DNA of 64,000 nucleotides, from positions 186,001 to 250,000 of the forward strand of contig JAQOWU010000008.1 of NCBI GenBank assembly GCA_030867685.1. Reading direction: 5' to 3'. Shown here in pieces: positions 1-46,222 of this stretch. Position numbers and translations under genes: made by a program. The notes below the pieces were generated by a model that saw only the letters and a program-made list of their open reading frames with translations, made no database searches and had not been told where the DNA came from. This DNA is from Wickerhamiella versatilis. Lineage: Eukaryota. Position 1 is the first letter of the stretch, and each line of letters begins with the position of its first letter.

Positions 1-207
1 ACACACCGATTGCTATGTGAGCCGATAGCTCGTTCTGAAAACGTTGTCACTAGCTGAAAATATTAGTTTGAAATATTGAGAGACAATCATATCAACAGTT
101 TGACATCTCTACTAGACTGCTGGTGAACGACACATGCAGTTATTCTCACTTATATCATTTGGCTCTATCTTACGGCTAAGTGGAGTGTATATCAAAGGTC
201 TATTTAA

Positions 208-1398
208 TTAAGCAAAAAGCATCATTAAAAACATCAATATGGATGGAAGCTGCGCCGATGACATTGCGGCATTAGCCACAGGTACCCCTTGCGACGACGT
301 TCCTTGGTTTGGTGTACTTGGAATGGGGGTATTTTGCCCACTGATAGTGTTGTTAGTGGAACCATTTACAAATGATTGATTTCCTGTAGTATTAGATGGT
401 GCATCAAGCCATTTTGCCGTGGAACCGTCTACTTTCACTGCCAGGCGGAGAACACGCATAGTCGCCGTAATGTAAACCCATTTTCGCCCTTCACTATCCT
501 TTCCGAATGCCAGATTGGAGGTGGCTGAGGAGCTCTCGATAAGAATTTTCCCCAGCAACTCACCCTTGGGGTTGTAAATGTGAATACCTTCCGCACTGCT
601 ACTCCACAGATTGCCGAATTCATCAACCTTGATGCCATCTGGAATGCCTGGTGTGACAGCCTTAAAAAGTTTTCCATTTTTCAAATTACCGTCGCTGATC
701 TCATACGCATAGATCTGTGGGACATGGCCTCCGTCGGTGTTTTGCGGAGTATCTGTCACGTAGAGTATACTTTCATCTGGGGACAATGCCAGACCATTGG
801 GCTGAAGAATCTCGGGGGTGTTGAGGCGAACAAGTTCTTTTGTAGTGGGATTGAAGCGGAAAAACCACTTTCCTTCGAGTTCTTGCTTGCCTCCATATCC
901 CTGCCTCAGATCAGTTAACCCGAATGCCGAATCCGCAAACCAAATATCGCCATTACTTGACACCACCACATCATCTGGACCATTCAGGCGCTTACCCTCA
1001 AAACTATCAACAAGTGTGACCCATGTGCCATTTAGCTCCCGCCGCAAAATCGACCTTTCTCCCTGTCCAGCTGCTACTAGTCTTCCCTCGCGATCTACAG
1101 AATTTCCATTTTCAAAGTTTGATGGTGACGATATAACATTTATCCCATCTTTCTCGGTCCAATTTACTGCCCGGTTACGCATAACCTCACTGAAGACAAG
1201 TGTACCATCTTTCAGGACTACTGGTCCCTCAGCCCACACAGACTCATTAGCTATGACCTTAGCTGGAATCGAGGTATCGACGAGATCCGAAAATATGCTG
1301 CTGTTTGAGACATACGTTACACCCTCATTTTTCCCGTGAACACAGAAGGCCGAGACTGTAAATAGGTACGAGCAGAAAGCAAGCGGACTTACCCACAT
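208..1398 (-). CDS. SMP-30/gluconolactonase/LRE family protein, bacterial-type core with signal peptide and GPI-like tail
   Basis: 396-aa ORF; WAEGP, NGN..DREGRL, QPNGLALSPD, GIPDGIKVD..GNLW motifs; hydrophobic N-terminus, S/T/N-rich stalk and hydrophobic C-terminus. Confidence 0.85.
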   Translation of the reverse strand: MWVSPLAFCSYLFTVSAFCVHGKNEGVTYVSNSSIFSDLVDTSIPAKVIANESVWAEGPVVLKDGTLVFSEVMRNRAVNWTEKDGINVISSPSNFENGNSVDREGRLVAAGQGERSILRRELNGTWVTLVDSFEGKRLNGPDDVVVSSNGDIWFADSAFGLTDLRQGYGGKQELEGKWFFRFNPTTKELVRLNTPEILQPNGLALSPDESILYVTDTPQNTDGGHVPQIYAYEISDGNLKNGKLFKAVTPGIPDGIKVDEFGNLWSSSAEGIHIYNPKGELLGKILIESSSATSNLAFGKDSEGRKWVYITATMRVLRLAVKVDGSTAKWLDAPSNTTGNQSFVNGSTNNTISGQNTPIPSTPNQGTSSQGVPVANAAMSSAQLPSILMFLMMLFA

Positions 1399-1737
1399 TT
1401 ACCAGTAATATTCAAAACGGCCGAAAATCTTATATTTATATATATTTTTGTATAATACATAACTAACATATTACAAGGTTGCTATGAGAATGAAAGTGGC
1501 TTAGCAAGCGTTAACGTTCTGGGCGTATATGTAATCGGCAATATGCAACGATCTACATTGCTAATTACCATCGGTTTTACCTCGAGTTTTCCCATTTAAT
1601 TTCTCAGAACTATGAGATCGGAGCTATAATGGCATCGAAAAATATTTCTGCAGACATTTTTTTGCTATTATTATTCAGATAATCTTTCACGGGATCTCAT
1701 CATCTCATCATCTCATCATTATTACCGACACTATCCG

Positions 1738-2679
1738 ATGAAGCGCGTGGCCGGCTTACAGTTGGGTACTGAGAATTCAGGTACATTTGCAACTTTAGAT
1801 AAGATATTGAGTTACGAAAATGAGATCGCTTCCGAGAAGCTGGATCTGGTTGTTCTTCCTGAAGCACTACTTGGTGGCTATCCAAAAGGTGAATCCTTTG
1901 GTGCCCGGCTAGGCTATCGTCTGCCAGAGGGACGCGAATCGTTTGCTAACTACTATGCTAATGCTGTATCTGTTCCCGGCCCGGAAATCGAAGCACTATG
2001 TGGAATGTCGACCCGTACGGGGGCTAGCCTCGTGGCAGGTGTGATCGAGCGTGATGGTCATACGCTTTACTGCACTGCAGTAATAATCAACCCTAACGAA
2101 GGCCTAGTGGCAAAGCATCGAAAGCTGCTACCCACAGGGGTCGAAAGGTTAGTATGGGGAAGCGGTGACGGTTCCACCATGCCAGTTGTTGACTCGCAAG
2201 CAGGACGGGTCGGGGCCGTAATATGCTGGGAAAACTACATGCCTCTTCTGCGAACAGCAATGTATTCGCAAGGCATTGAAATTTACTGTGCCCCAACGGT
2301 TGACGACCGGGACGTGTGGCAGTCCAGCATGCAGCACATCGCATACGAAGGCCGGTGTTTCGTTGTCAGCTGCTGCCAGATTTTGAAATCCCCTGCAGAA
2401 CTTGGTATCACTGCGTATGGCAGGGATGATAATGAACGGCTTATTGGTGGAGGCAGTGTCGTGTATGGGCCACTAGGCGAGAGACTCGCAGGACCCCTAC
2501 GGGATGGTGAGGGCCTGGTAATCGCAGATATCGATCTACAAAATATTCCTCGCGCGCGCTATGACCTGGATGTTGTGGGACATTATTCTCGACCCGACAT
2601 CTTCCAGCTCTCGGTGAATACCACGCCAAGAAGTACAACTACATTTCACAACGAACACGATAGTATCCCTAATCACTAG
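1738..2679 (+). CDS. Nitrilase (carbon-nitrogen hydrolase branch 1, Nit1-like)
   Basis: Catalytic triad motifs [27 protein letters not shown]-terminal [12 protein letters not shown]. Confidence 0.92.
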
Positions 2680-2788
2680 CCCATATATTTCAGACTAAGT
2701 ATGTATTATTTGACTATGAGCATAATTTTCGACAATATTATACACTTTTTGATCTAATCTCCCCTAAATTACACTGATCTAATCAGGA

Positions 2789-4063
2789 TCACTCAGAGGA
2801 ATCAAATCTTAGATCCCAATTGATCTGGGGTCCAAGCACGGGTAACAGCTCTGCCACATGCTCAACGTCTTTATCGCCACGTCCACTAAGATTTATTATG
2901 ACGTCTGAATCTTTCGGAAGATCAGCCGCCCGCTCTGCACCTTTAATTATAGCATGAGAGCTCTCGATTGCAGGAATTATGCCTTCAGTTTCGCTTAGCA
3001 GCCGAAACCCGCGAAGAGCATCAGCATCCGTGCAGGGAACGAAATCCACTCTCCCACTATCTTTCCAGGACGCAAGCTCGGGTCCGATTCCAGGGTAGTT
3101 CAGGCCTGAGGATATGGAACGGGTCGCTTGGATCGACCCATCTGGGGACTTTAGCACGTACGTTTGCATACCGTGCATAACACCCACTTTGCCTACGGAT
3201 AATGTTGCTGCATGGTGTGTACCGTCGAGGCCCTCGCCACCGGCCTCGACACCCAAAAGCTTGACGGAAGGATGAGGAATGAACTCGCTCGCGATCCCAC
3301 TAAAGTTCGAGCCACCACCAACACAGGCAACTACCAGATCAGGCAGGGCCTTACCAGTGAGCTCGCTGAACTGCTGTCGAGCTTCCTGGCCAACTATGGA
3401 CTGGAAGGTCCGTACCATAAGTGGATACGGATGGGGTCCAGCTGCACTGCCCAGGACGTAGAACGTATCTTTTAGATTCACCATCCAGTCTTCAAGAGCA
3501 ACGTCGATCGCATCTGATAACGATTTATTGCCCCTCTCCACCGGTACGACTTCAGTGCCCAATAAACGCATTCGAAACACATTTAATGCCTGTTTTCGGC
3601 AATCATCAGCACCCATATATACTACACACGATAACCCGAACTTGGCACATGCTGTTGCGGTAGCCACACCATGTTGGCCTGCTCCGGTCTCGGCAATAAC
3701 CCGCTTCTTACCCATCCTCTTGGCAAGTAATGCTTGGGCCAGTGCGTTGTTGATTTTATGAGACCCCATATGGTTCAAATCTTCACGCTTTAGCCAAATA
3801 CGGGCACCACCCATTTTCTCGGTCAATCTATCCGCCACATGCAGAGACGAAGGTCGTCCCATGTAAGGGTAATAAGAACGGTACTCTTCGTGGAAACTTG
3901 GGTCGTTCATCGCATCATAGAAGGCATTTTCCAGCTCCTCAAGACAAGGCACTAGGGGCTCCGGGACATGACGGCCTCCGTACACGCCAAAAAGACCAGA
4001 GTGTCTGGGGAACTCAGTCATTATCTCCATTTTTGTATTAATAATATTGCAATCTTCCTGCAT
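2789..4063 (-). CDS. Stand-alone tryptophan synthase beta-chain-like PLP enzyme (fungal Trp5 beta-domain type, no alpha domain)
   Basis: LKREDLNHMGSHKINN (PLP Lys), AETGAGQHG, CVGGGSN, NLSGRGDKD; Trp5-like C-terminus LPVLGPQINWDLRF; in-frame stop upstream and only about 470 bp to the next gene. Confidence 0.9.
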   Translation of the reverse strand: MQEDCNIINTKMEIMTEFPRHSGLFGVYGGRHVPEPLVPCLEELENAFYDAMNDPSFHEEYRSYYPYMGRPSSLHVADRLTEKMGGARIWLKREDLNHMGSHKINNALAQALLAKRMGKKRVIAETGAGQHGVATATACAKFGLSCVVYMGADDCRKQALNVFRMRLLGTEVVPVERGNKSLSDAIDVALEDWMVNLKDTFYVLGSAAGPHPYPLMVRTFQSIVGQEARQQFSELTGKALPDLVVACVGGGSNFSGIASEFIPHPSVKLLGVEAGGEGLDGTHHAATLSVGKVGVMHGMQTYVLKSPDGSIQATRSISSGLNYPGIGPELASWKDSGRVDFVPCTDADALRGFRLLSETEGIIPAIESSHAIIKGAERAADLPKDSDVIINLSGRGDKDVEHVAELLPVLGPQINWDLRFDSSE

Positions 4064-4533
4064 ATTAGCTAGATATCATAGACTTCGCCTGTTAAGAATG
4101 CGTCCAGCAAATCTAGCGAACCTCCGACGAAACAGGAGACCCATGCAACAGCCGCTATCAAAGCATTGTTAGCTTTTACTACCAAATGACCTGTGCTGAA
4201 CTTCACCCCTGATTCTGCACTTTCTATACTCGTTACAATTTGTACTGGTAGTACTCTCGCCCCGTCTTAGCTATCACGCTTTATCTGGGTGTCAATATCC
4301 TTCTCTGGGTAGGCATATGCTACTCCAGGCTCATAATGGGCCGTAGCAGCTAATAATTACACATCAATAATGATGTGATATCCTGCTCTGTAGCGTCAAT
4401 AGCACCACGCAGATCATAAATCCCTAAACAGGTAACTGTTTCATCACCTCATATGCACCATGGTGACATTGACACGTGACACACCATTTAAGGTATATTA
4501 ATAATAATAGGCCATCTGTGCAGTGTGATTGCT

Positions 4534-5388
4534 ATGGCTGTCGAGAACATACCGACTTACTCGCTCGTCGACGGTAATAAGTTGCCGGTAGTGGGATTTG
4601 GAACTTATAGCCTCTATGGAGATTCTGCCGTGGAAGGCATTCTAAGTGCAATCAAGAATGGCTACCGACTTCTCGACTCAGCATTCAACTATGACAACGA
4701 GGGTGCAGTGGGTGCTGCGATTCGAAAAAGTGGTGTGCCCCGTGATAAGATACAGATAACCTCAAAGTTACCTGGTCGCTACCACAAGTACGAGCTGGCT
4801 ATTCATGCGATTGAGGAGTCGGTCTATAGAACGGGACTCGACTATATCGACCTCTACATCATTCACTGGCCCAATCCGAAAGAGGATCTTTACGTAGAGG
4901 CCTGGAAGGCCCTAATTGAGGCTAAGCGTAGAGGTCTTGTTCGTTCCATCGGAGTCAGTAACTTTCTTCCCGAGCACATTGACCGACTGGTGAAGGAAAC
5001 CGGGGTAACTCCAGCTGTGAACCAAATCGAGATATCACCCTACTTCCCCCAGAAAGAACAGCGTGAGTTTGATGCGAAGCATGGAATTGTGACTGAATCT
5101 TGGAGCCCGCTTGGGCCATCGGGTCGTCAAGCCGAGCTAAGACAGGAGAAGAAAATTGTCGACATTGCTAAGGCAAAGGGCAAGAGTCCAGTGCAGGTTA
5201 TCCTGCGCTGGCACTATCAAATAGGTGCGCTTGCTATTCCCAAGTCTGCCGACCCAACTCGGCAGAAGGATAACATCGATATTTTCGACTTCAGCCTGAC
5301 CAACGAAGAGGTGGCAGCCATCGATTCGTTGGCTCGCCCTGATGGTAGGTCTAATGGATTGGATCCTCATGAACACCAGGAGTTTTAG
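4534..5388 (+). CDS. Aldo-keto reductase, 2,5-diketo-gluconate reductase-like, bacterial-type
   Basis: GFGTY, GYRLLDSAFNYDNE, SKLPGRYH, DLYIIHWP, IGVSNF, IPKS motifs; DPxxxxEF C-terminus typical of bacterial members; first ATG at 4534 (the track starts at GTG 4525). Confidence 0.9.
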   Translation: MAVENIPTYSLVDGNKLPVVGFGTYSLYGDSAVEGILSAIKNGYRLLDSAFNYDNEGAVGAAIRKSGVPRDKIQITSKLPGRYHKYELAIHAIEESVYRTGLDYIDLYIIHWPNPKEDLYVEAWKALIEAKRRGLVRSIGVSNFLPEHIDRLVKETGVTPAVNQIEISPYFPQKEQREFDAKHGIVTESWSPLGPSGRQAELRQEKKIVDIAKAKGKSPVQVILRWHYQIGALAIPKSADPTRQKDNIDIFDFSLTNEEVAAIDSLARPDGRSNGLDPHEHQEF

Positions 5389-5500
5389 ATGAAATTAAAT
5401 AGAAATAGCTAGTTCTAGTAAAAAAGGCTATCAATACCAGCATATCTCGAACCCAGCCTCGGCCAGTGATCATCAGTCGGTCACCTCGACCACCAGAGGA

Positions 5501-7177
5501 TTATAGTGCGGCAAACATCATTGAAGATATTATCCAGAAACTCCCAATGGAAACTGCCGGTGCTTTATTTGAGGAGGACCCTGACGATGACAAGGATGTT
5601 TGCTGACCAGACGCGGTAGATGACGATACTCTTTTGTCGGAAAGGGAATGCTGGCTAGCTTTTATGGTATTATTTCCCAAAGTGGACCCGTTAATTGCCA
5701 GCGCCTCAATTTTGAAGTATTGATAAGGTGTCTCCGCCATATACGTATCCTCGAACCCGGTTTTGTTAATATTATCGAGTTTTATTAGTGATTCTGAAGC
5801 ATTACCACCATAAATGCTGTAGGAACAAACCTCAGTAGCTCCATTCCATGAGAAAGCCATAACAGTCGAGCCGTTTGTCCTGTAACCCTTCGAAACTAGG
5901 GCAGGAAGCTCCACGGGCGAACCAGCCCACTTACTCTTAAATGCCCGGTACGAGTTGTCAGAGAAAAATGCTTCGAATACCATAGTACCATTTCTGTGGT
6001 ATTCAGTAATGGCAGGAACCGAGCCCCATCCCACAAAGTAGTTACCATTCGGCAATATTTGCACCGAACCCTGTGAGCCTGAAGGATCATAATCATCAGG
6101 AGGAAGCAGTTCCTGAACGAGGGAAACACGTCCAATCGAAGAATTAGGTGATGCATGATAGTGTTCAAGTTTTAATAGCATTCCCCGCGATGTGTCCTGA
6201 AATGTTTGAATAGATGAAAACTCACTAGCCTCATTATCAAACACCGTGATGTATCTGGTATTATTTTGGGACGACATTCCCACAGATTCAGCAGAAACGA
6301 ACCTCGCGTGATGCTGGAACGCGAACTTCGCATCTTCATCAATATCCCAGTGGCTTGCCGCGACACCACTTGAGATTGTCCAAATAACACTCCCATCTGT
6401 TCCGTTGATGTAAAATATTGACCACAGATGCCTTGAGGATACCAGAAAATTTCCCTGGTCGTCTTTCTGAATAGAGTTCATATGCATATAGTCGAAGGGG
6501 GCATTGTCGAAGAAGCCTTCGCTATCTATTTCAGTCAACACCATGGAATCAGATAGAGGAAAATGGTCAAGGGAATTCCATTGGAAAAGGATCTCATCGC
6601 TAGTCATGTCGATCTCGATAATGACGTTCTGGTAGACCCAGCCCTCGCCCGTAACCTCTGTGACATTGCTAGAAAAGTCATAGGGTACAGGCTGATAAGT
6701 TGTAAATACAGCAGTACTGTTCCCGGTCATTTGAAATTCGTGAAAGTCATGAAGATAAGGCGATGTGAATCCCAACGTCTTCTCAACCTGATAATTATCG
6801 TCCATGATGGCATATCGTCCCATGCCAATGCCACTATTGATAGCATTTCCCATAAAAAACGACACCTTTGAGTCATTTGAATAATCGAATGGCTTGAAAT
6901 TCATGACCATGCTTGCGACATTCCCATAGCCGCTCCACACCAGAGTTCCATCTGGTTCAAATATATGTGGTCCTAGAGAGGGACCTATGGTATTAGTACC
7001 CCAAGGTGAAATAAATATATTGCCATCCCAAGTGTTCTGTTTCTCGTACTTTGTCACATTCATAACTGTTGGATTTAGGTCCGGACGGGAAAGATAAGGC
7101 GCTGACTTAGGCGCATCAGCGAAACAGCTATTGACCAAAAAAACTATGGTCAATCGCAGAATTTCGTGAAAATGCAT
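5501..7177 (-). CDS. Arylsulfotransferase (ASST) family protein, secreted, with GPI-like tail
   Basis: SRPDL, DFHEF, DYMHMNSI, FAFQHHAR, SQGSVQILPNGN, SYRAFK motifs; signal peptide from ATG 7177; Ser-rich stalk and hydrophobic tail. Confidence 0.85.
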   Translation of the reverse strand: MHFHEILRLTIVFLVNSCFADAPKSAPYLSRPDLNPTVMNVTKYEKQNTWDGNIFISPWGTNTIGPSLGPHIFEPDGTLVWSGYGNVASMVMNFKPFDYSNDSKVSFFMGNAINSGIGMGRYAIMDDNYQVEKTLGFTSPYLHDFHEFQMTGNSTAVFTTYQPVPYDFSSNVTEVTGEGWVYQNVIIEIDMTSDEILFQWNSLDHFPLSDSMVLTEIDSEGFFDNAPFDYMHMNSIQKDDQGNFLVSSRHLWSIFYINGTDGSVIWTISSGVAASHWDIDEDAKFAFQHHARFVSAESVGMSSQNNTRYITVFDNEASEFSSIQTFQDTSRGMLLKLEHYHASPNSSIGRVSLVQELLPPDDYDPSGSQGSVQILPNGNYFVGWGSVPAITEYHRNGTMVFEAFFSDNSYRAFKSKWAGSPVELPALVSKGYRTNGSTVMAFSWNGATEVCSYSIYGGNASESLIKLDNINKTGFEDTYMAETPYQYFKIEALAINGSTLGNNTIKASQHSLSDKRVSSSTASGQQTSLSSSGSSSNKAPAVSIGSFWIISSMMFAAL

Positions 7178-8378
7178 GTTTGAAAGAAAAGCAATCGGTT
7201 GCAAAAATTAATGCAATTTTTTTGTTATCTGAAACAACGCTAAAATATTACTACCCAAGTGCCCATCCGAGTTAGCTATGAGACATCAAAAACCAGCAGC
7301 AACTCAGATCATGCTAAAAATTCCTGTAACCGATCTATCTTACATAGTTTCACATGTATTCCATATATTTGAGCCCTATCTTACTTGTAGGTATTAAGTA
7401 GATCAGGTGATTTTCGAAGCTAGCTATCTGGTCGTTAGTGGTTATATCGCTCAAATTAATTCAAACTATCTATAGATTTAAAAATGGTAATGGCTAGACA
7501 TATGAAAGTTTGTTTTTATCCGGGTAAGTTCATATAGAACTTACGAGCAATAATTTAGGATCATAAACTTACCATCACAATAAGTTTCGTTGTATTGGAA
7601 GGCTTCAATTAGGTACTGTTATAAAGGGCACTTTGCTATAAATTACGACCTTGTTCAACTTTTGCCGGCTGCAAAATTCACGATTGATGATCAACTCACA
7701 TTGGCAACCCGAGATCGGTATCGAGAGTGTGGAATCTGTCGTTCTTTCGAAAAAAAATAAATTTATTGATAATGATAAACCCTATATGAGCTGCTCACCA
7801 ATAGATTTAAGGTGGAGGATCCCTCCAGCACGAGCACCTCCCCCCAAACACATAAATCTGTCGCTTCTATTCGCGACGAATCAATCAGTGATGGGTTGTA
7901 TATTTCACGTGCCAAGTAACACCTGAGTGCATTGAGCTTCACCACGCTCCATCCGGAATAAATTCTCCGGAAACCAAAGTTTCAGGGAAAGGGTTCTGCG
8001 AGCTCTTCGCTTTCTAGTTTTATCAATATAAGCTATCATGCAGTTAGTAGTAATGCTGGTCCCAAGGCCTGTCACACAGGCAAGTCGATATAGGTCAGAT
8101 CGACTTTTGGTGAATAGCTCTATTGAGGAAAAAGGGTAGATTGGTGGCTATTAAGCTTTATCTGTGGACTGGAGTCTAGTGTCAGCGGCTCTGTTGATAA
8201 GGAGGTGATAAAATCATGGAATGAGTCCCTTGATTTAAAATTCGCCCATATCAGGTGAAAATAGGTAAGTTGGACTGCAGGGTTAGTCGAAGTTGTGCTG
8301 CGCAAATAGGAACATGGTCAGTTCGCAACTATGTATGCTGTTTACAGAACCAAGTACATTGCATATGATATGCTGCAT

Positions 8379-9257
8379 TCAACTAATTGATTTCTCAAAG
8401 AATAGGTCGGGATACGGGTCCTCGTTGAACCGGTCGATTTGCTGCCAGCCAGCCTTACGGTACGCAGCGACAGCCTCGGGTAAAGCACTATTTGTATCAA
8501 GCCTAAGCAACGTGATACCCAACGTAACAGCAATCTCCTCCACTCGCTGCATCAGCATCCGGAAGATCCCGAGTCCCCGGGCTTCGGGCGCAACCCAAAC
8601 TCGTTTAACCTCTGCATATCCCTTGTCAGTCCCTTTAAGGCCCGCGCAGCCCACAGGCAAGCCATCGGAGATTGCCAAAAGGAAGGTACCACGCGGTGCT
8701 CTCATATCGTCCTTATCGGGATCACACGATAAGTTGACATCGAACCCACCCTGAAATCTCCGTGATAACTCGTGATAATAGGCTTCCATGCATTCCTGGG
8801 CGGCCACGCTCGTGGGATCCACTTCCTTGATGATAACCCGCTCACGACCGAATGCAGCAGCAATTATATCCATTGCAGCCAGCAACTTTTCAGGATTTGA
8901 ATGGCGCTCAATTATCTGCCTGGCACGGTCATCTGAGAGCTCCTCATAGGCTGCATATTCCTGCTGTCCCAGCTCAGTAAGACTAACGAGGCGACGCCGA
9001 CTATCCTCTTTAGAGGGCTCAATCACTATCAAGCCATCTTTTTCCAACCCTCTGAGTAGCCTGCTCATCAGCCCAGAGTCAAGCTTGAGGTATACACGAA
9101 TGTCGCTTACTTCAGTGATTCCTCTGCCAACGGCGTTGAGTACCCGGGCAGGGCCCAGCGGGCGACCTCTTCCGAGGAAAGAGGCATCCAATACACCTAC
9201 CTCTGAAGTGAAGGCTCGCTGAAAGCGGCGGATGCGGTCAATGGCGTTCACAGACAT
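8379..9257 (-). CDS. Bifunctional MarR-type winged-helix regulator / GNAT N-acetyltransferase (bacterial-type)
   Basis: N-terminal MarR wHTH (LKLDSGLMSRLLRGLEKDGLI, DSRRRLVSLTELG); C-terminal GNAT (EVKRVWVAPEARGLG, LRLDTN, YRKAGW, FFEK). Confidence 0.92.
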   Translation of the reverse strand: MSVNAIDRIRRFQRAFTSEVGVLDASFLGRGRPLGPARVLNAVGRGITEVSDIRVYLKLDSGLMSRLLRGLEKDGLIVIEPSKEDSRRRLVSLTELGQQEYAAYEELSDDRARQIIERHSNPEKLLAAMDIIAAAFGRERVIIKEVDPTSVAAQECMEAYYHELSRRFQGGFDVNLSCDPDKDDMRAPRGTFLLAISDGLPVGCAGLKGTDKGYAEVKRVWVAPEARGLGIFRMLMQRVEEIAVTLGITLLRLDTNSALPEAVAAYRKAGWQQIDRFNEDPYPDLFFEKSIS

Positions 9258-39668: not shown

Positions 39669-40709
39669 ATGGACCATCTTGTGCAGTTATTTGTGATTTT
39701 CGTAGCGTTTCTGATTTATTTAGCCTTGAGATCTTTGACCGAAAGAAAAGGCACTTCAAGCTTGCGCATGTTGGACGGGGATGGGTCTTTAAGACCGGCG
39801 TCAAAAGAGATTCCGTCGCCAGAAAAGTTCAGACCCTTTAAGCCCAATTACCATATGACCATGGGAATAGGCAAAACAAATATTCTTGATTGGATCGTGA
39901 TTGAAGATACTTATAAAAATGTGGTTAGTGAGCATGAGTTTCTTATGAAAACAGTACCTCAAGAGACTTGTCTCGTAGATTCTCGAGCTACACAAGCCGT
40001 GAAAGAAGTTTACGAAACAATATTAGATTACATGATTTGCCGTTATCCCGCATACTTCCACAAAAAGGGTGACAAAATTGTCAATGGGATTCTTGCTAAA
40101 GAGATCCCTTGTTACGCAGGAAATTTACCACCTCATAGGCTTTTGGAATTGATTGGAGCAAACGTTGAGGAGGATGTACACCTGTTAGAGTTTGACCCTC
40201 AAAGTCAGGAATATAACCTGCGTGCATCAACTGGCTTTGGTGCTAATGGCTTTTATTGGCGAAAGAAATTTGGTAATATCATAACCAAAATTCACGAGCC
40301 AGTACCTCAGTATGAGGAGAAGCTGAAATTCAGTATGAATCGCTATTTTAGCAAGATACAGTCTGGCCAGTGGGTTCGCCGGTTCACATGGGGTATTCAA
40401 CTTGGTTCAGACTTATTCAAGCCTGAAGGGAACCACAATGCAAAAAGCGAAGGCAAGACTTTGCGAGCCTCAGAATTGGACTTCAATAATGTATTTATGA
40501 GACTTGAAAAGCAAATATTAACACGACTTCCTCGTACAAAGTTTATATTGTTCACAGTGAAAACTTATCTCTATCCCCTATGTGATATTAAAAGAGAGGG
40601 CCTTGGTCACTCTATGGTTCGGGGATTTGATGCTTGGCCTGATCAGATGAAGCAGTATAAGTCGTATCCCTTGTGGTCGGCTGCTGTCCGAGAATATATG
40701 GAGGTCTAA
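39669..40709 (+). CDS. DUF3445 / heme-dependent oxidative N-demethylase alpha-like protein
   Basis: RPFK..YHMTMGI, RYP.YF, VEED, IHEPVPQY..KL..SMNRYF, R.TW.IQ, RLEKQ.L.RLP motifs; N-terminal membrane anchor. Confidence 0.85.
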   Translation: MDHLVQLFVIFVAFLIYLALRSLTERKGTSSLRMLDGDGSLRPASKEIPSPEKFRPFKPNYHMTMGIGKTNILDWIVIEDTYKNVVSEHEFLMKTVPQETCLVDSRATQAVKEVYETILDYMICRYPAYFHKKGDKIVNGILAKEIPCYAGNLPPHRLLELIGANVEEDVHLLEFDPQSQEYNLRASTGFGANGFYWRKKFGNIITKIHEPVPQYEEKLKFSMNRYFSKIQSGQWVRRFTWGIQLGSDLFKPEGNHNAKSEGKTLRASELDFNNVFMRLEKQILTRLPRTKFILFTVKTYLYPLCDIKREGLGHSMVRGFDAWPDQMKQYKSYPLWSAAVREYMEV

Positions 40710-40896
40710 CTATATCAATAACAACAATCACTTATATTCAGCACCCCGTGTAAAACATCATTCTAATATGTCTCGAAATTCAATCAAGGAAATTCAATTA
40801 GTTCTTAAATATTAGAAGCAAAATGGTATATATGTATAGTATATTTTAACAAAGATAGTAAAATTTACTTGTCCTGACTACTACTTAGAATTAATT

Positions 40897-42006
40897 TTAT
40901 TCCTTACGCAGCCATGGAATTATTGCTGGGCCCCAAACAGGATGACCTTTATAATTAGCATACAGGTCTGGCCATGCTTCAAGTGCATCCGCCATAAGTG
41001 GTCCTAACCCCTCTACTTTCAATTGTTTCAATGGGTACCAGTAAGTATGTTGTGACAAAACTAGAAAACCACTTTTAGGAAGCTTTGTAGGTACTTGGCG
41101 TTCAAGTCGCATCCAAGTACCATTTTCAAAGTCAATATCATCCTCCTTCACACTAACCACTTCATTACCAGGTCCATGAACTCTCGGTTTTTTGGGATGA
41201 TAAACTTGATCACAAGAGCCAAGATGTATTCCCCAGGTTAACCTCTGAACAAAATTCCCAGGTTCAAGTCGTTTAAAGTATCTATTCATAGAAGTTTTGA
41301 GCTTTTCCTTGTATCCTGGAACAGGGCCATGAACATCTGTGAGCTTCTTATCTAGCTTACTCCTCCAGCTATAGCCATCAGATGTAAGACCACCAATTCC
41401 TCTCACAACATACTCATCTGAAATTGGATCGTGCTCTAGTAATTGAAAGTCCTCTTCGGTATTTTCTAGAAGTATGCGAAGTAGCTCCTCCGCAGTTTTT
41501 TTGCTCTCAAATGCGTGTTTCGGAAGCTCCATTCCATTTATAGTGTTGATAATTGATTTTTTTGATTGGGAAGGAGTGAAGTATTCTGGATATCGTCTCT
41601 GAAGTACACCAAGAACAACATCGTATAACTCTCTTATGGCCAATTCAGACCCAGGAGACTTACTAACCTTACAAGTTTCATCGGGATGCTCCATCAAAAT
41701 ATTTCTATGAATATTTGTGACCCACTCGTAAGTATCCTCGATTAGGAGCCAATCCTCAACTGGCACCTTTTTTATATTCATTGTCATATGGAAAACGGGC
41801 TTTATTGGCCGGTATTGCTGTGGAGGTGTATTGAACCATCTAAAGTTTTCTGATACTGGTGAAACTTCGAGGTAGAATCGATTGTTTGTCTTCTTTGCAT
41901 GTTGCAAAGCGGCCATAAGACTTAGGAGGCAAAGACATAGTATTAGTGCCTCCCATAAAATAGTATTTTCTTCTGCAAACTTCAAAATGGAAGATGCATC
42001 TGTCAT
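40897..42006 (-). CDS. DUF3445 / heme-dependent oxidative N-demethylase alpha-like protein (paralog)
   Basis: YRPIK..FHMTM, RYP.YF, TEED, VHGPVPGY..KL..SMNRYF, RLERQ...KLP; N-terminal hydrophobic segment. Confidence 0.85.
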   Translation of the reverse strand: MTDASSILKFAEENTILWEALILCLCLLSLMAALQHAKKTNNRFYLEVSPVSENFRWFNTPPQQYRPIKPVFHMTMNIKKVPVEDWLLIEDTYEWVTNIHRNILMEHPDETCKVSKSPGSELAIRELYDVVLGVLQRRYPEYFTPSQSKKSIINTINGMELPKHAFESKKTAEELLRILLENTEEDFQLLEHDPISDEYVVRGIGGLTSDGYSWRSKLDKKLTDVHGPVPGYKEKLKTSMNRYFKRLEPGNFVQRLTWGIHLGSCDQVYHPKKPRVHGPGNEVVSVKEDDIDFENGTWMRLERQVPTKLPKSGFLVLSQHTYWYPLKQLKVEGLGPLMADALEAWPDLYANYKGHPVWGPAIIPWLRKE

Positions 42007-44747: not shown

Positions 44748-46222
44748 TTATGAAGGATCTCCCGTTAGGCCAACATTTACAAGTAGATACACCACAACCA
44801 CAGTAAGAAAAGCACATATACCAACGCCTAGTCCAATCATAAGCCAATTATTGGCATAACTGTAAGGCTTCGTAGTTTCTTGGGGTCCATCAATTTTGTC
44901 ATACTGCTCGACGTGTACGCACATGACCTTATCTTTTGAGGTGAGGTATACCAAGGGGCACGATAGAACTGGTAGTGTGATCGTAAGAATAACTTGGGAC
45001 CAATTTAGGGCTTTGCTAAGCCCGTTATCACCCATAGTAGCTGCCACAATTACACAAGGAATTAAAGCCAAACCTCTAGTGATAATGCGCCTTATCCATG
45101 GCTTAACTTTCCAATTCATGTAACCCTCATAAACAATTTGACCAGCTATTGTACAAATCACGCCGGCACTTTGACCACTGCATAATAATGCAACCATGAA
45201 AACAATCGCAGCTCCTTTAGAAAGAAAGTTTTTGAGAAGGTCGTACAAATTAAATAAGTCAGCATTTGCTGCTTCTGGCTTGCCATACATCGTGCCTGCT
45301 GCGATAATAAGTATAGCAGAGTTGACAAATAGCGCAACTGTAAACAATGCGGAAGCTAGATCTGCGATAGCATAAGGCATGGAATGATCGATCGAAAGGC
45401 GGCTGGGTCGATATTGTGCATGAATACCAGACTCTTGGGGGCCTTAGGATAGCCATCATGTTCATCCTGAGCTCTAATACGAGATATTACCCCAGAACTT
45501 CCAAGATAAAGGCTATGTGGCATGACAGTGGCACCCAGTATTCCGGCAGATAGAACAATTCCATCTCCATCAATAACTGATGAAGAAGGAACATATCCAA
45601 GAAATATATTACCTGGATTTACGCTGGGTATACGAGCGAGGAGTACACAAAATAAAACTATGAGAGAAAAAATCAAACCCATTGTCAGAAGTTCAAGTAT
45701 ACGGACCGCTTTCATTCCTCCCTCAGGTTTGTACGCGAGCATAACCAGAAGTACATCAGTAATAGTAATAAATACACCTCCTATAATGGGGATATGGAAC
45801 AGAACCTTTAGTGCTATAGCCGTGCCTATTACTTCAGCGATGTCTGTACACATGATTGCACTCTCAGCAAAAATATATATGACATAGCACATCCATTTCG
45901 GTAAATGTTCACGACAATTGTGGGCATAGTCCTTGCCTGTAGCGCTTCCAAGGCGTAATGAGATTAGCTGCAGATACAACGCTAGTAAAGTAGATAACAG
46001 GATGACAAAGAGAAGCTTATAACGTTTTTCAGCGCCTCCACTTACAGCTGTAGTGTAATTTCCTGGATCCATGTAGGCAATTGATACCATGAGCCCAGGT
46101 CCTAAGAACTTCACGAATTTCATGAATACATGAAGGACCGTGTTAGCAGAGTAGCCTCGACATCTGTCGCGTGCTACTTGACCGTTAAATGCCGCAATGG
46201 AGGCACTTTTGGAGGAGTCCAA
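44748..46222 (-). pseudogene. NRAMP (Smf1/Smf2-like) metal transporter, frameshifted
   Basis: GPGLMVSIAYMDPGN, GATVMPHSLYLGS and GQSAGVICTIAGQIV motifs split across two frames; the shift maps to a C5 run (G5 on + strand, 45437-45441). Confidence 0.75.

Follow-up and report, generated by a model that had tools for sequence, protein, structure and literature searches.

Tryptophan synthase is the classic example of an allosteric enzyme that channels its substrate, and much engineering has been aimed at beta subunits (TrpB) that are active without the alpha subunit (TrpA). What becomes of a beta subunit that is freed from its alpha in nature? The question is raised by a 64,000-nucleotide stretch of DNA from the yeast Wickerhamiella versatilis (GenBank assembly GCA_030867685.1, contig JAQOWU010000008.1, positions 186,001 to 250,000), which we call the window and whose first letter is position 1. 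It contains an open reading frame (ORF) that resembles only the TrpB part of the fungal tryptophan synthase gene TRP5, and it amounts to a natural eukaryotic experiment in which beta has been separated from a fused alpha. A reading made from the sequence alone (the sequence-only reading) had taken the ORF for a duplicated and neofunctionalised beta-replacement enzyme in which both partners of the Arg141-Asp305 salt bridge are substituted. Our sequence comparisons lead us to conclude that the ORF derives from fungal TRP5, that it holds only the beta part, and that it is specific to its lineage. We also propose, with about an even chance of being right, that its product is an accessory enzyme for beta-replacement, which would work without alpha and probably salvage indole, and which some strains have lost.

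The whole protein scores 543.8 bits against the TIGR00263 (trpB) model, which has a curated cut-off of 392.45 bits, and Pfam finds one domain only (PALP, 145.3 bits). Its best match among sequences in the PDB is LBCA-TrpB, a reconstructed bacterial ancestor (525.8 bits); in the same search, the TrpB proteins of Salmonella and E. coli align over residues 24-411 of the ORF. In a collection of 5.8 billion proteins, the best 120 matches, which are the ones that we used, are all alpha-beta fusions (PF00290 and PF00291 in 120/120). The two nearest fusions (P0001 and P0002) are 73-74% identical to the ORF, and the best named matches, from Wickerhamiella sorbophila and Sugiyamaella lignohabitans, are each 66% identical. 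A maximum-likelihood tree (400 columns, quick search) was built from 52 rows: our ORF with hits 1-31, 13 more fungi that carry names, and an outgroup of 7 bacteria. The ORF lies inside the 45-row fungal clade, whose support by the Shimodaira-Hasegawa-like approximate likelihood-ratio test (SH-aLRT) is 100, and it is sister to P0001 and P0002 (90) in a clade of six rows (97), a placement that comes from a quick search and involves a long branch. Because the ORF is nested within the beta domains of fungal TRP5, it is a partial duplicate of a yeast TRP5 and not a transfer from bacteria, so the "duplicated" part of the sequence-only reading stands. P0002 and P0255 (697 amino acids, with 9 differences between them) may be the canonical TRP5 of the same genome.

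A search with a 320-residue piece of the protein found no beta-only relative among candidates of 176-560 amino acids. Some matches of 382 amino acids looked at first like PALP-only proteins, and these were rejected: they are gene calls of Pezizomycotina TRP5 that were cut short and begin at an internal MDCL..., and 16/16 of those fetched have canonical motifs. A scan of metagenomes with the protein gave 79 loci, all of at most 59% identity (bacterial TrpB) and none from this yeast. As an aside, one bacterial contig from the metagenomes (L003) carries a pair of TrpB1-type ORFs at a single locus, which score 504 and 467 bits against our ORF. In a literature search that lacked most subscription journals, no paper on a fungal beta-only TRP5 paralog turned up.

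Could the alpha domain be encoded further upstream? The start codon of the ORF is about 460 bp from a divergent aldo-keto reductase gene. When the full-length TRP5 protein P0002 was compared to the window with tblastn, only its residues 298-697 matched (73.5% identity, window positions 3997-2801). Residues 1-305, which are the alpha part, had no tblastn match better than E = 0.67 in the 64 kb, and no PF00290 sequence was found by tblastn within the 64-kb window. We also used RNA reads from a run that is labelled as the same species (X24; 1955/2108 reads are 95-99% identical to the window). Across window positions 1-8000 these reads have no splice joints, and their only loose ends are at an indel at 3134/3136, which is described below; at the 5' end of the ORF there are neither joints nor loose ends. 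The lack of joints and of 5' loose ends rules out an alpha exon upstream, as far as X24 can show. The ORF is not part of a fusion: it has PALP without the N-terminal PF00290 domain of fungal TRP5, the 64 kb contain no alpha partner, and alpha-contact residues that are conserved in TrpB1 are changed in the ORF. The sequence-only reading saw no room for an alpha domain and worried about a missed exon, and on both counts our data are in its favor.

Homology to the beta domain of TRP5 begins at about residue 23-25 of the ORF, and residues 1-24 are new, without a counterpart in TRP5. (MAFFT spread this N-terminus over the alpha domain, and we discarded the five false changes in conserved columns that resulted, at query positions 6-24.) M1, M12, or M15 could be the start codon; M12 is phenylalanine in the frameshifted form of the gene from another lineage. 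RNA read ends accumulate at 4007-4017, near the 5' end of the ORF, and the X24 library under-covers 5' ends (reads also begin 9-18 nucleotides inside the reductase ORF). The ORF is transcribed, as a broken allele in X24: summed depth is 44-69 across 2938-4005, falls to 3.6 in 4006-4272 and 0.9 in the second intergenic bin, and is about zero over the next-but-one gene. Because depth collapses in the intergenic bins and over that gene, the signal is RNA and not contaminating DNA, so the lack of expression that the sequence-only reading had allowed for was not seen. A motif scan of the intergenic region found no GCN4-type TGASTCA site or TATAWA box upstream of the ORF.

We numbered residues by BLASTP and pairwise alignment to TrpB from E. 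coli K-12 (K103 of the ORF is K87, E125 is E109, K157 is R141, S183 is K167, A258 is F241, N322 is D305, and M99 is at position 83). Conservation was judged from a MAFFT alignment that set the query beside 237 relatives, of which 120 are fungal fusions and 117 are others of the TrpB1 type. The ORF has the motifs HMGSHKINN, ADDCRKQ, SISSGLNYPGIGPE, and NLSGRGDKD, and the two nearest TRP5 proteins instead have HTGSHKINN, AEDCRRQ, and SISAGLDYPGVGPE. The salt bridge between Arg141 and Asp305 stabilises the closed R state of the enzyme, and the substitutions D305A and R141A change substrate specificity (PMC9512447). In the ORF, both members of the closed-state pair are replaced, by K157 and N322. 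Their columns are invariant in the relatives (Arg in 237/237 and Asp in 236/236), so R141K and D305N are not ordinary variation of Trp5, which was the sequence-only reading's other concern. If changes were scattered at random, the probability that both partners of one named pair were hit would be about (14/158)(13/157) = 0.007. What the sequence-only reading saw in the motifs (R141 to K in DCRKQ, D305 to N, and HTG to HMG, with the lysine for pyridoxal phosphate (PLP), the E109 equivalent, and NLSGRG retained) was confirmed throughout by the alignments.

Other conserved positions have changed as well. The 285-310 loop also carries Q288K, Q293S, H/Y298R, A302S, and V309I, and S181 (T165) and M194 (S178) flank the altered stretch in helix 6 of the COMM domain (Table 1). 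Of 213 columns that are at least 95% conserved in fungi, 21 are changed in the ORF; for columns at least 95% conserved in all 237 relatives, the count is 14 of 158. R141K, T165S, F241A, D305N, and V309I are in columns that are invariant in the 237 relatives.

Judging by the alignment, the catalytic core of the ORF is intact. Lys87, the GGGSN loop, Ser377, the 110-115 carboxylate loop, and Glu350 are all identical to the consensus of the 237 relatives, and E125 aligns with the indole-activating Glu109. The unchanged residues are H82, H86, K87, E109-H115, L166, Y186, G189, C230, G232-N236, G303, L304, E350, S377, G378, R379, and K382. Of 42 positions that bind PLP, take part in catalysis, or line the pocket, all but 83, 141, 165, 167, 305, and four variable ones have the residue of the fungal majority, and the residues of the indole pocket (L166, Y186, and Y/F306) are kept.

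Where the changes lie is informative. Lys167 of TrpB forms a salt bridge with Asp56 of alpha. The equivalent of Lys167 is serine in the ORF, Arg175 is glutamate, Gln288 is lysine, and the pair at 279/280 in the alpha-beta interface (the "Res6" set) is M-Q where the nearest TRP5s have A-K. R175 is described as contacting T183 of alpha (in alpha loop 6), Q288 as contacting N104 of alpha, and K167 as contacting Y279 (PMC8187860). Together, helix 6 (161-181) and the 285-310 loop account for 11 changes in 29 conserved columns, versus 10/184 elsewhere (Fisher p = 6e-6, which is flattering, as we chose these two elements after seeing the data). As aligned, the changes concentrate where beta is coupled to alpha and where the active site is closed.

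A similar picture comes from TrpB2, an ancient alpha-independent family. We compared the ORF to five TrpB2 genes (631-668 bits to TIGR01415) from the genomes behind loci L107, L110, L122, L125, and L153, which are metagenome-assembled genomes named as Chloroflexia, Chloroflexota, and Ktedonobacterales. Columns that deviate in at least 4/5 TrpB2 proteins make up 11/14 of the columns that changed in the ORF and 70/144 of the unchanged ones (one-sided p = 0.029), so by this alignment the overlap is modest but real. It suggests that the overlapping positions are held by coupling to alpha rather than by chemistry. We keep the duplication that the sequence-only reading proposed but do not take its neofunctionalisation as established: release from alpha coupling explains the clustering and the overlap with TrpB2 no less well than a new chemistry does.

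Table 1. The TrpB-like ORF, its altered and retained codons, and adjoining features (window positions)
Feature	Position	Strand	Basis or comparison
Beta-only TrpB1-type ORF (P0121), intact, 424 codons	2789..4063	-	ORF listing and translation
M99 codon (HTG to HMG, position 83)	3767..3769	-	T in 235/237 relatives; E. coli G; TrpB2 A or V
K103 codon, equivalent of PLP Schiff-base Lys87, retained	3755..3757	-	K in 237/237 relatives
K157 codon AAA (R141K), COMM domain, salt-bridge partner	3593..3595	-	R in 237/237 relatives
Codons 167-168 (TTA TTG); 1-base deletion in another allele gives 194 amino acids (P0239)	3560..3565	-	Look-up
COMM helix-6 stretch: S183 (K167 equivalent, R in fungi), V188 (E172), E191 (R175)	3491..3517	-	Alignment
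A258 codon (F241A), just past the GGGSN phosphate loop	3290..3292	-	F in 237/237 relatives; TrpB2 A, A, A, T, V
Codon 310 (TCG, Ser); a related lineage lacks bases 3134 and 3136, -2 frameshift, gives 334 amino acids (P0242)	3134..3136	-	Reads, look-up
N322 codon AAC (D305N), other salt-bridge partner, loop 285-310	3098..3100	-	D in 236/236 relatives; TrpB2 R in 5/5
Intergenic region, ORF to divergent aldo-keto reductase gene	4064..4533	.	No alpha match; RNA depth 3.6 and 0.9; GC 0.432
NIT4/PinA-like nitrilase, bacterial type, convergent neighbour, 109 bp between stops	1738..2679	+	PDB and database matches

Has selection maintained the ORF? We took the shared state of P0001 and P0002 as the reference and counted the differences of the ORF by conservation class. 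It differs at 26/50 of the least conserved columns, at 26/88, 7/56, and 10/53 columns of the next three classes, and at 6/110 invariant columns, one of which is an alignment artefact. Conserved columns are avoided about tenfold (52% vs 5.5%). Because of this, and because a frame of 424 codons is still open after about 26% amino-acid divergence, purifying selection appears to have acted over most of the history of the ORF.

The gene is not intact everywhere. In the cluster of proteins at 90% identity, the intact form of 424 amino acids is on 5 contigs, a form of 334 amino acids is on 5, and a form of 194 amino acids is on 1. (The cluster also holds a 116-residue C-terminal piece and unrelated members of 46-47 residues.) Removing bases 3134 and 3136 from the window reproduces the length and tail of the 334-residue form, and these two deletions are present in 47/47 and 46/47 RNA reads of X24. 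The 194-residue form is reproduced, in length and in tail, by a deletion at index 500 of the ORF, with 2 differences in the shifted tail. The intact and frameshifted lineages differ at 7/423 residues, 3 of which are within the first 12. A contig from another source (X15, "organism B"; 110 substitutions over 3959 nucleotides) has no indel in the ORF, and all 11 of its gap letters are elsewhere. P0242 and P0239 are disrupted in the way expected of a pseudogene; the allele in the window is not, as its 424 codons are open.

The convergent neighbour of the ORF is a nitrilase. Its best match in the PDB is the beta-cyanoalanine-specific NIT4 of Arabidopsis (313.8 bits vs 168.7 for the next). Outside its own cluster its relatives are 63-67% identical, and those with names are nearly all from Pseudomonadota (Achromobacter, Burkholderia, Pantoea); one match, at 73% identity, is on an 848-kb contig from the Joint Genome Institute. 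From these matches, the nitrilase is probably a bacterial gene that the yeast acquired. Among the 120 relatives listed, one Pantoea protein is named as a plant-induced nitrilase that hydrolyses beta-cyano-L-alanine, and a protein atlas search with the nitrilase gave "carbon-nitrogen hydrolase" clusters only. The nitrilase is transcribed, with reads starting at 1726 (X24). On the X15 contig it is frameshifted by an extra C behind 2017, which is seen on a single contig and could be an assembly error. Each of the two genes is frameshifted where the other has no indel, so the nitrilase and the TrpB copy seem to be lost independently. In 80 bacterial nitrilase loci, no CysK- or TrpB-type ORF was found within 5 kb (0/80; both controls worked), and the literature search gave no title on cyanide or cyanoalanine chemistry by tryptophan synthase. 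A functional coupling of the ORF to the adjacent nitrilase is unsupported.

On the other side of the ORF, the aldo-keto reductase gene (4525-5388, + strand) has the highest expression in the first 8 kb (depth 130-240). Its read starts cluster at 4543 and 4552, past the first ATG at 4534, which may reflect the under-coverage of 5' ends or another start. An arylsulfotransferase-like (ASST) gene with a signal-like N-terminus (5501-7204, - strand) has X24 depth below 1 in bins 5608-7209. Further on, one ORF joins a MarR-type winged helix to a GNAT acetyltransferase (8379-9257, - strand), which is a bacterial-looking architecture in a yeast. Two convergent HODM_asu-like genes (like the alpha subunit of a haem-dependent oxidative N-demethylase) at 39669-42006 are unusual for a yeast, and near them are bacterial-type catabolic genes for a CoA transferase, PrpD/MmgE, amidohydrolase 2, and a DOPA dioxygenase. 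An Nramp-type transporter (44748-46123, - strand) is split into two overlapping ORFs, with profile positions 2-191 in 45356-46123 and 201-353 in 44748-45380, which suggests that it is frameshifted. With its many bacterial-type genes, the window resembles an accessory region of a chromosome and fits the "end" domains described for the chromosomes of Wickerhamiella and Starmerella; in one Wickerhamiella species, purifying selection is reported to be relaxed there (PMC13376923).

Our preferred explanation, then, is as follows. A partial duplicate of TRP5 kept only the beta domain and recruited a new 5' end. Its product would be a PLP enzyme that converts L-serine, or an activated serine, to the aminoacrylate and couples this with indole to make tryptophan. 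It would need no alpha and would draw on indole that is supplied from outside. With alpha lost, helix 6 of the COMM domain, the K167 equivalent, R175, Q288, the 279/280 pair, and the R141-D305 latch would no longer be held in place, and they could have drifted or adapted, in part to the states seen in TrpB2 (S165, E175, A241, a residue other than Arg at 141, and a non-acidic residue at 305). Because Lys141 and Asn305 could at best form a hydrogen bond, we predict that the closed state is weaker and that the leaving-group pocket is less negative. The gene would be conditionally useful and would have been under purifying selection for most of its history, with null alleles now segregating. We infer the enzyme activity, the substrate, the effect on closure, and the role in indole salvage from the retained and altered residues.

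Several observations weigh against this proposal. Indole is already a substrate for canonical Trp5, and why a yeast would need another enzyme to salvage it is not obvious. There are two independent frameshift null alleles in related strains, which implies that the gene is dispensable, and the RNA in X24 comes from a strain with a broken allele. The terminal branch of the ORF is 0.79, versus 0.096 and 0.084 for the sister TRP5s, which implies that the protein evolved about 8-9 times faster than its parent, and its five violations of invariant columns exceed those of any other sequence in the alignment (median 0, maximum 4). The stand-alone activity of LBCA-TrpB and of plTrpB from Pelodictyon luteolum has been attributed to six residues (PMC11917138), and the ORF has only 1/6 of these, the same one as ordinary TRP5; LBCA-TrpB keeps both R141 and D305 in our alignment. 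From a weaker latch one would expect less stand-alone activity and not more (PMC9512447, PMC11917138). Much of this could be explained if the ORF were a decaying partial copy of TRP5 without present function, in a gene-poor accessory region, and the allele in the window a pseudogene that is not yet broken and is transcribed by default. R141K, D305N, and the other changes in invariant columns would then reflect relaxed constraint, and the ORF would have the most such violations of the 238 sequences for that reason. One of the two frameshift alleles is transcribed at its neighbours' level, and the neighbours seem to decay too (the +1 at 2017 in the nitrilase of the X15 contig and the split Nramp gene), in keeping with the relaxed selection reported for "end" domains of one Wickerhamiella species (PMC13376923). 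Decay is the main rival to our proposal, but we think it somewhat unlikely, because the frame has stayed open through so much divergence while conserved columns were avoided, because the catalytic and PLP residues are all intact, and because the changes are clustered, not scattered. Also, of the five genuine departures from invariant columns, four are conservative exchanges (R>K, T>S, D>N, V>I), 5 contigs carry exactly this intact protein, and the X15 contig has no indel in the ORF. Relaxed selection, which the sequence-only reading named as a threat to itself, is partly borne out by the long branch and the two frameshift alleles.

Two other explanations give the protein a different job. It could be a neofunctionalised beta-substitution enzyme with another substrate pair: O-phosphoserine or O-acetylserine in place of serine, or a nucleophile other than indole, of which the boldest candidate is cyanide, giving beta-cyanoalanine for the nitrilase. 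Removing the negative charge at 305, as in TrpB2, would permit an activated serine; TrpB2 has Arg there in 5/5 and is described as dependent on O-phospho-L-serine (PMC11917138, citing Busch 2014), and D305A and R141A shift specificity (PMC9512447). The nitrilase adds to the case for cyanide, given its closeness to NIT4, the one relative named for beta-cyano-L-alanine, its transcription to a depth similar to that of the ORF, and the hydrolysis of beta-cyanoalanine by fungal NIT4 homologues (PMC7503981). But the ORF keeps Glu109 and the indole pocket, it lacks the P82 and W115 of the TrpB2 core, and the two genes break independently; the bacterial nitrilase loci and the literature search also give the idea no help. 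We consider it quite unlikely that the substrates have changed in this way, and very unlikely that a re-tuned alpha-independent enzyme with a changed substrate pair (activated serine or cyanide) forms, with the nitrilase, a chimeric fungal-bacterial module for assimilating cyanide or nitrile nitrogen in plant-based fermentations. Alternatively, the protein might be a non-catalytic or regulatory partner of Trp5 that forms a heterodimer through the beta-beta interface or docks on its alpha and so tunes the release of indole. The analogy is to the plant TSB-like protein, which has D to E and R/K at the partner position and activates TSA allosterically (PMC12727527). TSB-like is defined by E to A, whereas the ORF keeps E109 and the whole core; the alpha-contact residues are the ones that have decayed; and alpha in fungi comes already joined to a beta of its own (120/120 best matches). 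Such a regulatory role seems extremely unlikely to us.

If the intact allele is active, then the latch is dispensable or can be replaced in a stand-alone context, and the protein may be a new scaffold for biocatalysis. The "invariant" positions that have yielded in this freed beta are the R141-D305 latch, the K167 equivalent, R175, Q288, F241, and the 279/280 pair, and some of them have reached the states of TrpB2. The intact and frameshifted alleles would serve as ready-made controls for studying how indole and nitriles are handled in mixed food fermentations. If decay is all that is taking place, this is an ordinary loss of a duplicate in an accessory chromosome region.

How does the ORF compare to known systems? 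Relative to fungal TRP5, its catalytic and PLP residues are unchanged, and it ends in the fungal C-terminal tail of the GWDLRF type. It differs in having no alpha domain or linker, in its new N-terminus of 24 residues, in being altered at 21/213 conserved columns (including R141K, D305N, the K167 equivalent, R175E, and F241A), and in being dispensable, as null alleles exist. The plant system for cyanide detoxification (CysK with NIT4) is alike in that a PLP enzyme of fold type II that carries out beta-substitution adjoins, in our case on the chromosome, a NIT4-like nitrilase. The ORF is derived from TrpB, however, and is not of the CysK type: it scores 28.7 bits with the cysK model (cut-off 350.95) and 30 bits with cysKM (cut-off 344.15).

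Plant TSB-like is, like the ORF, a natural duplicated TrpB1 paralog with changes in the R141-D305 latch. The plant protein has lost the catalytic Glu, whose role is to activate indole (E to A), its D305 equivalent is changed from D to E, and position 222, the equivalent of R141, is R or K (Florean et al. 2025, PMC12727527). The D to E change is described as a longer acid that locks the active state, alpha binding is kept, and the protein is an allosteric activator of TSA (PMC12727527). The ORF instead retains the Glu at 109, has lost the acid at 305 (D to N), and has decayed alpha-contact residues. LBCA-TrpB and plTrpB are TrpB1-type proteins that act without TrpA, as we propose for the product of the ORF, though they do not resemble it not in the residues discussed above.

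TrpB2 proteins are reported to be indole-salvage enzymes that depend on O-phospho-L-serine and are alpha-independent or loosely coupled. Both TrpB2 and, by our reading of the sequence, the ORF are beta subunits without an obligatory alpha. They share S165 and E175, as well as A241 (where the five TrpB2 proteins have A, A, A, T, and V), and neither any longer has Arg141, Asp305, or a basic residue at 167. The replacements at the last three positions are different: TrpB2 has Gln at 141, Arg at 305, and Gly at 167, and the ORF has Lys, Asn, and Ser. The ORF also keeps the TrpB1 states H82 and H115, where TrpB2 has P82 and W115, and with 175.3 bits on TIGR01415 (cut-off 518.85) it is not a member of that family; its origin from a eukaryotic TrpB1 was independent and recent.

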